Virus record (IMG/VR): IMGVR_UViG_3300007535_000003
Span: 33,238-97,237 of that record
Source: a virus
Reading direction: 5' to 3' (one strand)
DNA length: 64,000 bases
Numbering within the stretch: the first letter of the stretch is position 1; each line of letters begins with the position of its first letter. Below the pieces are notes generated by a model that saw nothing but the letters and a program-made list of their open reading frames with translations, was not told the origin of the DNA and searched no databases. Shown in pieces: positions 7,609 to 11,611 of the stretch. A program made the position numbers and the translations under genes.

Positions 7609-7728
7609 GGTCCGTTCGTCTAGTGGTAGGACGCCGAGCTGTTAATACTTTATACATGCACTAGCTATGTTAGAGTATCAACCATGGTTTGCCCCACGGA
7701 AACGGAGGTTCGACTCCTCCACGGACTG
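7609..7728 (+). ncRNA. tRNA-like RNA with an expanded anticodon arm
   Basis: Acceptor GGTCCGT/ACGGACT, D-arm GTCT-AGTGGT-AGGAC, T-arm GGAGG-TTCGACT-CCTCC; about 50 extra nt in the anticodon arm. Confidence 0.75.
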
Positions 7729-8393: not shown

Positions 8394-8837
8394 ATGTGGA
8401 AATCTAACTCAAAGCAAAGCAAAGACAAAATAAGTAAGGGCAGTTTAGTAATTATTGACATGCCCGACTTTATTGGAGAATATGTACCTTCAATAAGTAA
8501 GGTAGCGTGTAGCTACAAAGAAAAGATGCTACATTTCTCTAATGTTAGCAATGCTTTTGGTAGCTTATTTGGTGAAGAACACCATTTAATAGAAGTACCA
8601 AGAGCAGTCATACTCTATAACAAGACACATTTTCTTAAGAGTGTATTAGAGCTATCTGAAGCATATAAAGAAGATAGCTTAGATTCTTTATTCTTTTACG
8701 GTCGTAAAATAGTACTACCAGTCCATGAGGGATACTTAATGCCGGTAAGTAAAATAAAGGATCCACACAAAAGAGGACTATGTTATAGAGAATGGGAAAT
8801 GTTAAAGACTAAGGGATATAGTAACCTTATAACCTAA
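8394..8837 (+). CDS. hypothetical protein
   Basis: 147-aa ORF in operon. Confidence 0.65.
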   Translation: MWKSNSKQSKDKISKGSLVIIDMPDFIGEYVPSISKVACSYKEKMLHFSNVSNAFGSLFGEEHHLIEVPRAVILYNKTHFLKSVLELSEAYKEDSLDSLFFYGRKIVLPVHEGYLMPVSKIKDPHKRGLCYREWEMLKTKGYSNLIT

Positions 8838-8898
8838 CTTAACTAACAAACGATTTACTTACGCTGCTAGCTAGGGCTTTAGCGGACTCGGGTTCGAT

Positions 8899-9519
8899 CA
8901 AAAGGTCGAAGTTAAACTGGGTGAATTCAGGGAAACCTAAGTCACAATGATAAGGCAACCCTGAGCCAAGCCCTTAAGAGGGAAGGTGCAGAGACTACCT
9001 GAATACAGGCTAGAGCGCCCAGCACTTAAAAGTGAAGAGATAGTCCGATACTCCTGAGAAATTAGGAGAAGAAGCGAGATGTAAATTCTTGACGTTTTGA
9101 TAAGGTTTCTTTTGTATATTTACCATTACGAGGTGTTATACTCTTCAATTCGTTAAGTATCATATCTATACGTCTACGCTTCTTGGGATGTCTGGAATTT
9201 ATGTAAGATAGTACGTTTATACATTTAGGTAAATAAGTATACCTCAGCTCATAATTAGTAAAATCACCTGATTTTTTAGTACAAATGAATCCATTATGAC
9301 CTGTTTCAAGTTTAATAAATTTTTCTATTTCCACAAGTAGGTCATATTCGTTATTACTAAAAGAAATAACAGGTGATCTTTCGCAATTCTTATGTAAACG
9401 TAAAAATGTTATCGTGCCGTCAGCATCAAAGAAACCTGTAATATATTCCCAACCCATATTTTTATTGAATATACGGACGCAGGTTTGAAATGTTACTGTT
9501 CCAGATGTTTTAACTATTG
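8899..9519 (+). mobile_element. group I intron in the tmRNA T-loop
   Basis: P1 with U.G at the splice site (TTCGAT/GTCGAA); P GAATTCAGGGAAAC 8923; Q AACCCTGAGCCAAG 8957; R GTGCAGAGACTA 8986; S AAGAGATAGTCC 9035; P3 CTGGGTG/CGCCCAG; extra P7.1 hairpin (IA-like); terminal G9519. Confidence 0.92.
9062..9457 (-). CDS. single-motif LAGLIDADG homing endonuclease, antisense within the intron
   Basis: N-terminal YITGFFDADGTI motif, 131 aa, located in the P9 region of the intron. Confidence 0.9.
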   Translation of the reverse strand: MGWEYITGFFDADGTITFLRLHKNCERSPVISFSNNEYDLLVEIEKFIKLETGHNGFICTKKSGDFTNYELRYTYLPKCINVLSYINSRHPKKRRRIDMILNELKSITPRNGKYTKETLSKRQEFTSRFFS

Positions 9520-9552
9520 TCCCGAAGGCTCCACTTATCTAAACACTGTATT

Positions 9553-9693
9553 ATGAAAGCATTAAAACTACCACGGAAGGAGAAAAAGAGACGTAAGAAG
9601 GAGATACAAAAGTATCTAAGAAATGTTCTTAAGGTAGAAGCTAATACTAAAAACATCCGATTATCGGAAATAGGATACAGGCTAGTAAAATAG
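9553..9693 (+). CDS. 46-aa highly basic protein in the tmRNA intervening spacer
   Basis: MKALKLPRKEKKRRKKEIQKYLRNVLKVEANTKNIRLSEIGYRLVK*. Confidence 0.45.
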   Translation: MKALKLPRKEKKRRKKEIQKYLRNVLKVEANTKNIRLSEIGYRLVK

Positions 9694-9812
9694 CCCGTTG
9701 CCAATGATAGCAGTAGGGCAGGTGAGGAGAAAATATTATAATTTCACGGAGGTTGGTAACTCAGGTAGCCCCTGGGGTGTAACCTGCCCTTTGTTTTCAA
9801 CGTTAAAAATAT

Positions 9813-9955
9813 GGGGCCTAATTGGTTTTGACGTTATGGTACCCAGTTAGCACGAAAGGTGTAAGTAATTTTTAAATGGCGAATCTGAAATGATGCAATT
9901 GCTTAGAGCAGCTGCTTAATCGGTGAGTCTTGGGGGACATTAATAGTCCCCCTTT
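9813..9955 (+). ncRNA. ssrA: two-piece tmRNA, coding (5') piece; tag (A)GESEMMQLLRAAA
   Basis: Starts GGGGCCTAATTGGTTTTGAC; GGGGCCT pairs with AGGCTCC including G3.U70; resume context TAAAT-GGC at 9878; tag ends GCT GCT TAA at 9919. Confidence 0.9.
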
Positions 9956-9960
9956 TTCTT
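9932..9960 (+). terminator. intrinsic terminator ending the tmRNA coding piece
   Basis: GGGGGAC/GTCCCCC stem followed by a T-run. Confidence 0.85.
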
Positions 9961-9982
9961 TAACCATTAAAACTAACCAAAC

Positions 9983-10531
9983 ATGGATAACTTATTTAGG
10001 AAGACACTACTCCAAGATCTTAAAGATCAATATTTGGAGTTACGGAAAGACTTCTTTAGGGCTAAAAAAAGAGGCAACAAAAGGGAAGCAAATTCCCTGC
10101 GAGAACAGCTTTCAACACTTTCCGCCTTAATCGGAGAAATTGAGAATATGGAAAAGAAGAAAGCATCATCCAGCTTTGAAGGAGACAAAAAGTACTTAAG
10201 GAAATACTTATTTGATACACTAACTGCTTCTTTGACTGAATCCAAAGATAGTCGTAAAGGTAGACTTTTCAGAGATAAGTGTATCAACGAAGTTGCAACT
10301 ATAACGAAAGCTTCTCATAAGCACTTGTTTGAAGAAGATGATAAGTTAAGTCCAGAAGAGGCGTATAATATCATTAATACGCTTAGTAAGTTTGGTATGA
10401 AGGAATTCAGGGAAAGAATCAGTGAAGCAAGAAAAGACGACAGGGGTAGAGACAGAATTGTCAAGTTTGTCTTTTCAAATTCACCTGAAGATCGAAATAA
10501 AATCGATATGGTGATTAAGAAAGTTCTATAA
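9983..10531 (+). CDS. hypothetical protein
   Basis: 182 aa, coiled-coil-like N-terminus. Confidence 0.7.
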   Translation: MDNLFRKTLLQDLKDQYLELRKDFFRAKKRGNKREANSLREQLSTLSALIGEIENMEKKKASSSFEGDKKYLRKYLFDTLTASLTESKDSRKGRLFRDKCINEVATITKASHKHLFEEDDKLSPEEAYNIINTLSKFGMKEFRERISEARKDDRGRDRIVKFVFSNSPEDRNKIDMVIKKVL

Positions 10532-10552: not shown

Positions 10553-11611
10553 ATGAACAAATACAATGCTTCTGCATCGGAATTATTTGATGCAGCCGAA
10601 TACTTTTACAAAATGGCTGTCCGTTTTGAAGACAGGTATTGGAATCATGGCAACAACCAAAGTGATATGAGTGCCATGCATATGTACAAACTGAAAGCTG
10701 CTGAAGCTGAAAGCTACGCTGAATTGCTTATTCAAGAGGGGTTAAGCAATACCCTAGGATTTGGTCCTGAATGGATTAAAAAGAATTTTGTAGCTCTTAA
10801 TCCAGCTAATATTAAAAGTGAGGTAAGTAAAGCTAAAGAAGCTGGTAAAAGTGAAATCCCTAATGCTGAAATAGTTAATGATGAAGCTGAATTCATTAGC
10901 AAAAAAGTAGGTATGAAATTACGGGAAGAAGAAGCAGCTGTACTTAGCAAAAAAAGGCAAATACGTGAAAGTGAACCTCCATTTGTAACTAGCTTACGTT
11001 CTGAAATTATAGAACTACTTGAAAAAGGTCTAAGGGGCGAATTGGTTACATTATTAACTAAGTTCCATTTTAGGGATGTTGAATATCCTGCAGAAAGAGC
11101 TTACAGGTTTATCAACTTAGTTAAAGAGCAATTCAATATATTAGAACCCTCAAGTTCTTTAAAAGAAGCTAAAACAGCCAGAAGGGTAGCTGAACTAAAA
11201 ACTCAGCTGCTTAATAAAAAGAGAAGAGAATTCAGGAAAAAGTACACTAAAAAGCATGGTAAATTGCCTAAGCCCGAATTACTCAATGCTATACAACTAA
11301 GCGATCAGGAAATAGCTCCTTTAGTTGAAAAAGCTAATAAATGGGGCACAGAAAAGATACCTGTAAATACCTATGTTTATGCTAGATACACGGTACATAA
11401 TTGTAATGGTGTAGATGTAGAAGAGGGCTATGCCAAAAGACATAAGAATAAGCCTAATGAGCTATGGCATAGCAATAGGTTTGTATGCTTCTTAAGTGAT
11501 GTAGAGAAGTGGAGACCTATCTACGATATCATTCACAACAAAGAAAGGGAGATGAAGTGGTATTTCAATAACAACCCTGTATCAGGCAAATATCAAAGAA
11601 ATAAAGTTTAA
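10553..11611 (+). CDS. hypothetical protein
   Basis: 352-aa ORF. Confidence 0.75.
   Translation: MNKYNASASELFDAAEYFYKMAVRFEDRYWNHGNNQSDMSAMHMYKLKAAEAESYAELLIQEGLSNTLGFGPEWIKKNFVALNPANIKSEVSKAKEAGKSEIPNAEIVNDEAEFISKKVGMKLREEEAAVLSKKRQIRESEPPFVTSLRSEIIELLEKGLRGELVTLLTKFHFRDVEYPAERAYRFINLVKEQFNILEPSSSLKEAKTARRVAELKTQLLNKKRREFRKKYTKKHGKLPKPELLNAIQLSDQEIAPLVEKANKWGTEKIPVNTYVYARYTVHNCNGVDVEEGYAKRHKNKPNELWHSNRFVCFLSDVEKWRPIYDIIHNKEREMKWYFNNNPVSGKYQRNKV

Follow-up and report, generated by a model that had tools for sequence, protein, structure and literature searches.

Group I introns that interrupt the T-loop of transfer-messenger RNA (tmRNA) genes were first described in Clostridium botulinum, and 883 unique sequences of this kind are held in a 2025 database (PMC11915505). 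The 2025 census, which covers 97,179 tmRNA sequences, distinguishes five classes, namely standard, permuted, intron and two without a tag reading frame, and has no class that is both permuted and intron-bearing (PMC11915505). Here we describe a locus in a 64,000-nt stretch (the window) of a 97,237-bp soil virus record from IMG/VR (estimated completeness 94%), in which what is probably a permuted phage tmRNA gene carries in its T-loop a group I intron with a LAGLIDADG endonuclease gene on the opposite strand. Three forms of tmRNA are known (standard, intron-bearing and permuted), and this locus joins the last two. Each of its features is known by itself, and it is the permuted and intron-bearing combination that appears to be new.

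Published tmRNA introns occupy T-loop subsites 2, 3, 7 or 8, and 36 of the 883 contain LAGLIDADG genes; among the 23 nuclease-bearing founding sequences the gene lies after P9 in 4 and in P7.1 in 19, so that LAGLIDADG genes after P9 are already part of the published record (PMC11915505). The orientation of these genes is not discussed, and 26 intron-form tmRNA genes were counted in Bacteroidota (PMC11915505). Neither tmRNA nor antisense nuclease genes come up in a major review of bacterial group I introns (PMC3984707). Nucleases may also stand beside their introns, as in the collaborative homing of the cyanophage S-PM2 psbA intron, which has no open reading frame (ORF) and adjoins the free-standing F-CphI (PMC6083498; reviewed in PMC3984707), and arrangements with the nuclease beside and then inside the intron have been proposed as stages in the birth of mobile introns (PMC3984707).

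The T-loop intron and its predicted splice junction

The Rfam group I intron model (RF00028) matched the window with 97.3 bits (E 7e-24; gathering score 50; full model 1-253), which bears out the group I core of the original prediction, and exactly one group I intron was found by Rfam in the whole phage. The reliable stretch of this alignment is P3-P9 (8917-9068). The 5' end reported by Rfam (8774) was rejected as the intron start, given that the first 46 model positions (P1/P2) are misaligned into the upstream ORF. The intron and its flanking exons comprise the following elements:

8888-8898, plus strand: end of the 5' exon, with the T-stem 5' strand UCGGG (8888-8892) and T-loop nucleotides 1-6, UUCGAU (8893-8898)
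8899-9519, plus strand: group I intron of 621 nt, defined by the RF00028 match, a unique junction and homology to position-7 tmRNA introns
8905-8910, plus strand: internal guide sequence GUCGAA, which forms P1 with the exon; P1 loop at 8899-8904
8917-9068, plus strand: ribozyme core, from the Rfam alignment and RNAalifold on nine homologous introns
8917-8923 and 9016-9022, plus strand: P3, core helix
8927-8965, plus strand: P4-P5, core helix
8965-8987, plus strand: P6, core helix
8993-8997 and 9041-9045, plus strand: P7, GACUA with UAGUC
8998-9009, plus strand: P7.1, hairpin CCUG-AAUA-CAGG between the 5' strand of P7 and the 3' strand of P3
9023-9034, plus strand: P8, 4 bp only
9051-9068, plus strand: P9, with a GAAA loop
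9458-9519, plus strand: intron 3' tail, ending in UUAACUAUUG; on the minus strand it forms the 62 nt upstream of the nuclease ATG
9520-9533, plus strand: 3' exon, with T-loop nucleotide 7 (U9520), T-stem CCCGA (9521-9525), acceptor strand AGGCUCC (9526-9532) and discriminator A9533

In the RNAalifold alignment of the window intron with eight relatives, 23 of 43 pairs show compensatory changes, and the P7 strands CAGAGACUA and AUAGUCC are invariant. P1 comprises 6 bp between UUCGAU (8893-8898) and GUCGAA (8905-8910); this exon/guide pairing is kept in all nine introns, as is the U·G pair that had been predicted at the splice site (U8898·G8905), and the P7.1-like hairpin that had been proposed was also found. 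The window core is 74-76% identical over 118-123 nt to the introns of four related loci (L122, L123, L127 and L130) and 69% identical over 179 nt to that of L139, the matched position-7 T-loop tmRNA introns coming from genomes of Flavobacteriales and Vicingaceae and from one phage. The ribozyme measures 170 nt between the 5' splice site and the end of P9, and it appears to be compact and IA-like. Related introns have a GNRA-like P2 loop (GUAA or GGAA), and the window intron lost P2 and shortened P8 together, which may reflect the joint loss of a tetraloop-receptor contact.

In the junction search all U/G pairs were enumerated, with 5' sites from 8734 to 8903 and 3' sites up to 1.3 kb past P9, and judged by whether they rebuild an acceptor strand, a stem of 5 bp and a loop of the form TTCRANN. 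Six pairs yield a T-stem if G-U pairs are permitted; the combination of five Watson-Crick pairs (UCGGG/CCCGA), a TTCGATT loop and an acceptor strand AGGCUCC-A with a partner arises from 8898/9520 alone. This is the junction that had originally been predicted, with G9519 as the terminal nucleotide of the intron. No ligated sequence other than the one expected from it, GGTTCGAT joined to TCCCGAAGG, rebuilds the tRNA-like domain, and removal of the intron restores the exact 7-nt T-loop that had been claimed (TTCGATT), together with a 5-bp T-stem and a paired acceptor strand. The insertion point follows T-loop nucleotide 6, which PMC11915505 numbers as position 7. ARAGORN accepts a junction moved by up to 2-3 nt and so cannot by itself fix it; what fixes the junction is the Watson-Crick T-stem rule combined with the rules for group I introns. 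The same procedure solved 25 related loci, in 19 of which ARAGORN called a tmRNA after excision, thereby validating the procedure, and 9 of 12 further loci were solved later. The motif UAAC-N2-3-UUG at the intron end is common to the window, L139, L131, L133 and L152, and pairing between the segment after P9 and the 3' tail was no better than in shuffles.

Order and predicted pairing of the tmRNA pieces

The host gene had been predicted to be a permuted tmRNA, and its order is indeed an acceptor piece, an intervening segment of 279 nt and a coding piece. Besides the exons given above, it contains:

8854-8886, plus strand: 5' region of the acceptor piece, pairing with 9832-9868 of the coding piece as a P2-like inter-piece helix
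9534-9812, plus strand: intervening segment, with a 46-aa basic ORF (9553-9693) and a long hairpin (9717-9790), then a U-rich tract
9813-9958, plus strand: tmRNA coding piece, with the acceptor strand (9813-9819), the GGUUUUGACG motif, the tag frame and the terminator
9878-9919, plus strand: tag reading frame called by ARAGORN, with a resume codon, GESEMMQLLRAAA, then a stop
9932-9958, plus strand: intrinsic terminator from a terminator scan, which ends the coding piece

The only plausible partner of the acceptor strand AGGCUCC (9526-9532) is GGGGCCU at 9813-9819, located 294 nt past the 3' splice site and followed by GGUUUUGACG; the two form an acceptor stem in trans with all 7 pairs, including G3·U70 (G9815·U9530). 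The two pieces also pair through the inter-piece helix, for which RNAcofold and RNAduplex gave -31.4 kcal/mol against -17.0 +/- 3.4 in 1000 shuffles (z = -4.2). Among 5118 windows drawn from both strands of the 64 kb only 5 bind the coding piece equally well, some of these being its own complement and the true partner. When cofolded, the pieces show the acceptor stem, the T-arm and an inter-piece helix of roughly 30 bp. The tag starts with GES-, as in the tags GESNYAMAA and GESNYALAA of Bacteroidota (Cytophagales, Flavobacteriaceae), and CCA is not encoded, as in most relatives. Pseudoknots 2-4 are absent from the window tmRNA; known two-piece tmRNAs have fewer pseudoknots.

Once 8899-9519 was taken out and at least 100 nt of the spacer deleted, ARAGORN reported 'tmRNA* permuted' with the tag GESEMMQLLRAAA, in agreement with the permuted gene that had been proposed. 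With the intron kept it called no tmRNA. Artificial joins that un-permute the two pieces were also tried, and ARAGORN recognised none of them. It is reasonable to suppose from these features that the split gene would give rise to two mature RNA pieces. The intervening segment has a fold z-score of -2.8, its ORF (9553-9693) is very basic and its hairpin is trailed by UUUGUUUU; this hairpin could serve to terminate transcription internally or to direct processing between the pieces.

Soil-metagenome contigs from other samples span 9345-10300, including the 3' splice site together with spacer and coding piece, and show zero differences from the window; the arrangement is therefore not a one-off assembly artefact. 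An intron-less joint was not seen in these independent contigs over the locus, and no RNA run was found that contains the locus. The best matches of the phage DNA polymerase are from crAss-like phages, with 29-31% identity, and we regard the phage as a distantly crAss-like one whose hosts are likely Bacteroidota. Neither a second tmRNA nor SmpB was found in it.

The antisense LAGLIDADG gene and its relatives

The nuclease gene lies within the intron, on the strand opposite to the tmRNA:

9062-9457, minus strand: homing endonuclease gene of 131 aa, with the motif ITGFFDADG and a C-terminal TPRNGKY

At its stop codon the gene overlaps the 3' strand of P9 by 7 nt, which places the ORF after P9, in the region where it had been predicted, and its product begins with MGWEYITGFFDADG. 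Pfam scores are below the cut-off for both LAGLIDADG_1 (21.6 against 23.1 bits) and LAGLIDADG_3 (19.0 against 22.5). A phmmer search against 1.8 billion representatives nevertheless identified 237 relatives, mostly of 130-140 aa and at most 49% identical over the full length, which have the LAGLIDADG helix and the C-terminal TPRNGKY in common. The ORF is full length relative to 30 homologues; among the 31 aligned members Asp11 is invariant, the catalytic Asp13 is present in at least 90% and RNGKY is kept. The family profile matched I-PanMI (8e-7) among solved structures in the Protein Data Bank (PDB), and AlphaFold2 (AF2) gave a model with a mean predicted local distance difference test (pLDDT) score of 95.7, a predicted template modelling (pTM) score of 0.86 and the topology alpha-beta-beta-alpha-beta-beta-alpha. 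Foldseek placed I-OnuI, I-TnaI and I-CreI at the top and also returned I-CvuI and I-Vdi141I, among 126 PDB matches at E <= 0.001, and all of the matches listed are LAGLIDADG enzymes. Taken together, the homologues, the profile match and the fold settle the LAGLIDADG identity despite the sub-threshold Pfam scores, and by its sequence and predicted structure the 131-aa ORF is a genuine single-motif LAGLIDADG enzyme.

Given its single motif and its size of about 130 aa, the enzyme would act, like I-CreI, as a homodimer. The T-arm DNA is an inverted repeat with 5-bp arms and a 7-bp spacer, which would be a natural fit for such a homodimer. Considering the association of the family with tmRNA 3' ends, its most likely target is the T-arm DNA of intron-less tmRNA genes; this association lends indirect support to the cleavage of such DNA that had originally been suggested.

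Expression of the nuclease would proceed from the minus strand, and it is conceivable, as had been suggested, that such antisense transcription might modulate splicing. A sigma-70-like match upstream of the gene (9496-9468) does not rise above chance, given that 5 such matches were found and 4.8 would be expected, and the exact Bacteroidota promoter element TAnnTTTG was not found upstream of the window gene, only TATATTCA, which is partly shared with its closest relative, L137. Of 21 antisense relatives, 8 have the exact element, often as TATATTTGCA, at a distance of 42-61 nt before the ATG. The antisense loci that have it include L139, L155, L157, L158, L161, L164 and L167, and at L139 it overlaps the region of the 3' splice site.

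The related loci (L-numbers) were retrieved with the alignment of the nuclease family, 15 from genomes and 31 from viral contigs, and were classified with Rfam, the junction solver and ARAGORN. Of the genome loci, 14 out of 15 belong to Bacteroidota (Flavobacteriales, Vicingaceae, Saprospiraceae, Reichenbachiellaceae and Prolixibacteraceae), and nearly all related nuclease loci, in these genomes and in phages, are at the 3' end of a tmRNA gene. Five arrangements were recognised. The nuclease gene lies inside a position-3 intron in sense orientation at 12 loci and in antisense orientation at another 12, all of them viral, and it lies antisense inside a position-7/8 intron in the window, L139, L131, L133, L137, L152 and probably L158. 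Elsewhere it is found outside, downstream of a tmRNA with a nuclease-less intron, either sense (L122, L123, L127 and L130) or antisense (L140, L141 and L143), or antisense downstream of an intron-less tmRNA (L142, L144 and L167). About 25 loci have antisense copies. In the nuclease tree the nearest relatives of the window enzyme are those of L137 (position 8) and L139 (position 7), both antisense, and switches between arrangements fall inside well-supported clades. Antisense orientation is therefore a recurrent state of the family and not peculiar to the window phage. Wherever its position could be established at the other loci, the 5' acceptor strand lies 300-460 nt upstream, as in a standard one-piece gene; only the window is permuted.

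Several related loci have further features. At L123 (2441, 2912), L127 (2437, 2912), L141, L144 and L167 the cassette lies between two direct copies of the tmRNA 3' end, that is, part of the T-stem 3' strand and the acceptor strand, and at L167 (860-1500, minus strand) all that is left of the ribozyme next to the nuclease is a 28-nt stretch of P9; these repeats and the remnant look like the footprint of cassette movement or ribozyme loss. The nuclease-less T-loop introns with a LAGLIDADG gene directly downstream (L122, L123, L127 and L130, and the viral L140 and L143) measure 194-232 nt. L134 (870-989) and L135 (2501-2668) retain only the first 40-56 codons of the nuclease gene, and that of L132 (2501-2897) is interrupted by an in-frame stop; ribozyme scores at L134 and L132 are still 82-98 bits, and at L135 no intron was detected and the tmRNA scores 126 bits. 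At L141 a GOLLD RNA (1300-1714; RF02032, 328 bits) lies about 1.2 kb from an intron-bearing phage tmRNA with an antisense nuclease.

Relatives of the window phage itself were also sought. Neither a sister phage nor an intron-less allele was found via the neighbouring proteins (10553-11611 and 9983-10531), a nuclease search of metagenome contigs or the exon/P1 pattern; a search with the coding-piece motif returned only the contig of L139 and chance matches. A generic T-arm pattern gave 120 sites, all of them in unrelated tRNA or tmRNA, and was discarded.

Elsewhere in the window, positions 7609-7728 match the Rfam tRNA model (44.6 bits) with a 51-nt insertion in the anticodon loop and have no ARAGORN call; comparable oversized tRNA matches occur at L137 (1438-1541), L159 (3655-3761) and L163 (3515-3623). 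On the minus strand, 36258-58541 is a single ORF of 7,427 aa, followed by ORFs of 678 and 926 aa with no PHROG match. To our knowledge, the proteins commonly named as virion RNA polymerases of crAss-like phages are far smaller than the product of the 7,427-aa ORF.

Alternative readings, proposed mechanism and known systems

We consider it likely that the whole account holds, namely a permuted phage tmRNA with a T-loop group I intron and an antisense nuclease, matured by splicing and two-piece assembly, the nuclease cutting T-arm DNA. Several observations weigh against it. ARAGORN calls no tmRNA in the native window, intron removal alone is insufficient, and tmRNA detection depended on edited constructs, with the intron out and the spacer shortened. 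The Rfam tmRNA families were unmatched in the window at the gathering score and in 9500-10050 at E <= 10, as was RF00023 on the whole phage; likewise, the models of the known permuted lineages (alpha, beta, cyano and mito) gave no match on the window or on 9500-10050. The window ribozyme has no P2 and the shortest P8 (4 bp), unlike all 8 aligned relatives, so that its activity may be reduced or protein-assisted, and P10 amounts to 1 bp at best. No convincing promoter was found within the window before the nuclease gene, nor was a Shine-Dalgarno sequence, which its neighbouring genes also do not have, and the sister phages by which conservation of the permuted order might be judged were not found.

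The main rival to this account is that the tmRNA is a rearranged dead gene, its halves split by recombination, perhaps provoked by the nuclease, with the intron and nuclease persisting as selfish DNA. Consistent with this, the permuted order was found in no relative, all 37 other solved loci of the intron/nuclease family are one-piece, ARAGORN fails on a spacer of this length, within which there is a terminator-like hairpin, and the lack of pseudoknots 2-4 would also fit. Such a relic is hard to reconcile, however, with a trans acceptor stem that keeps every pair, G3·U70 included, an additional inter-piece helix of about 30 bp (z = -4.2), an intact tag frame that starts as in Bacteroidota, ends in -AAA and is closed by a stop codon, a clean terminator after the coding piece and a ribozyme core that scores on par with those in intact bacterial genes; in a relic such features would decay, and we judge it quite unlikely. 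Far less probable still is a shorter intron that would end at a G soon past P9 and leave the nuclease gene outside as a free-standing neighbour. This is what is seen at L122, L123, L127, L130, L140, L141 and L143, where the intron ends 7-10 nt past P9 and the nuclease gene is outside the tmRNA gene, whereas in the window neither a T-stem 3' strand nor an acceptor strand follows P9, the sole copy of AGGCUCCAC is at 9526, the other junctions give G-U-rich pseudo-stems without an acceptor partner, and L139, L131 and L133, which share the 3'-end motif, are built in the same way, with an internal nuclease gene.

The nuclease ORF might instead be decaying or silent, in an intron that is no longer mobile and in an orientation without functional meaning. 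The missing clear promoter and ribosome-binding site, the Pfam scores and the decay seen in relatives (fragments at L134 and L135, the in-frame stop at L132) would agree with this, and we regard it as the least improbable of the alternatives, if still doubtful, considering that the ORF is full length against its 30 homologues and keeps Asp11, Asp13 and RNGKY, that the AF2 model is very confident, and that TAnnTTTG in 8 of the 21 antisense relatives indicates that antisense copies can own promoters. Another conceivable view, which we hold to be rather unlikely, is that the mobile unit is not the intron but a nuclease cassette with a copy of the tmRNA 3' end, which moves among subsites 3, 7 and 8, changes strand and may also stand free between direct repeats of the tmRNA 3' end (as at L123, L127, L141, L144 and L167), and that repeated cutting and repair of the T-arm led through tandem duplication to the permuted gene. 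If this were true, a homing endonuclease would have driven the origin of a two-piece tmRNA lineage that is both new and independent and that relies on self-splicing to mature.

Returning to the account of a permuted, intron-bearing tmRNA with an active nuclease, we infer splicing, two-piece processing, nuclease expression and target from the anatomy, homology, covariation, fold, family context and assembly support described above. The window intron would self-splice from its precursor in two steps initiated by guanosine, with P1 presenting U8898·G8905 and G9519 as the terminal nucleotide, giving the ligated exon product GGUUCGAU joined to UCCCGAAGG and rebuilding the TTCGATT loop. The acceptor piece would then be freed by tRNA-processing enzymes through 3' trimming and CCA addition, and the coding piece by an RNase P cut before G9813, after which the 7-bp acceptor stem and the helix of roughly 30 bp would hold the pieces together and host SmpB would be required for assembly. 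The nuclease, made from its own minus-strand transcript, would cut intron-less T-arm DNA in co-infecting phage or host genomes, and repair of the double-strand break would spread the intron/nuclease cassette. A single functional RNA would in this way depend on splicing by a ribozyme, on RNase P and 3' processing at two ends, on the addition of CCA and on the assembly of two pieces. The locus would also extend permuted tmRNA to a distantly crAss-like phage, which implies another independent permutation. The family as a whole offers a natural series, with the nuclease beside an intron-less gene, beside a nuclease-less intron, or inside the intron in either orientation, and the whole series would have one small, highly conserved and partly palindromic target, the T-arm. 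About 240 compact LAGLIDADG enzymes (~130 aa) with a probable common target are thus available for specificity studies.

Compared with intron-form tmRNA genes, the window intron occupies the main published subsite, 7, has U at -1 paired with the G of P1 and a terminal G, rebuilds a 7-nt loop and carries a LAGLIDADG gene after P9, and its ribozyme is 69-76% identical to Bacteroidota position-7 introns. It differs in that the host gene is permuted, whereas all 883 catalogued genes are one-piece (PMC11915505), and in its location in a phage, its antisense nuclease and its missing P2. The two-piece tmRNAs of Alphaproteobacteria, Cyanobacteria, some Betaproteobacteria and jakobid mitochondria (RF01849, RF01850, RF01851 and RF02544) share with the window the acceptor-spacer-coding order, the trans acceptor stem with G3·U70, the fewer pseudoknots and, presumably, tRNA-type processing; unlike them, the window is unmatched by these Rfam models and has an intron in the acceptor piece and a spacer with a possible ORF and a large hairpin. 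Given the Bacteroidota-like tag and tRNA-like domain, the permutation therefore seems to have arisen independently in the phage lineage.

Nuclear ribosomal DNA (rDNA) introns with antisense nuclease genes (e.g. L2066; PMC9548176) likewise hold a gene on the opposite strand within an intron of a noncoding RNA gene, and sense and antisense forms occur at the same site (PMC9548176), but these are eukaryotic His-Cys box genes that are expressed by RNA polymerase II and have spliceosomal introns (PMC9548176), whereas the window has a phage LAGLIDADG gene. Collaborative homing is approached by L122, L123, L127, L130, L140 and L143, where the nuclease adjoins a nuclease-less intron, while other loci hold it inside; in the window the nuclease is already inside the intron, belongs to the LAGLIDADG family and faces a target gene that encodes a stable RNA. 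With the homodimeric enzymes I-CreI, I-TnaI, I-CvuI and I-Vdi141I the window nuclease shares the fold (Foldseek probability 1.00, query-normalised TM 0.6-0.7), a single LAGLIDADG helix that ends in the catalytic Asp and a size of about 130-160 aa, but identity to them is only 13-17%, and the TPRNGKY helix motif sets apart a separate family of about 237 members.

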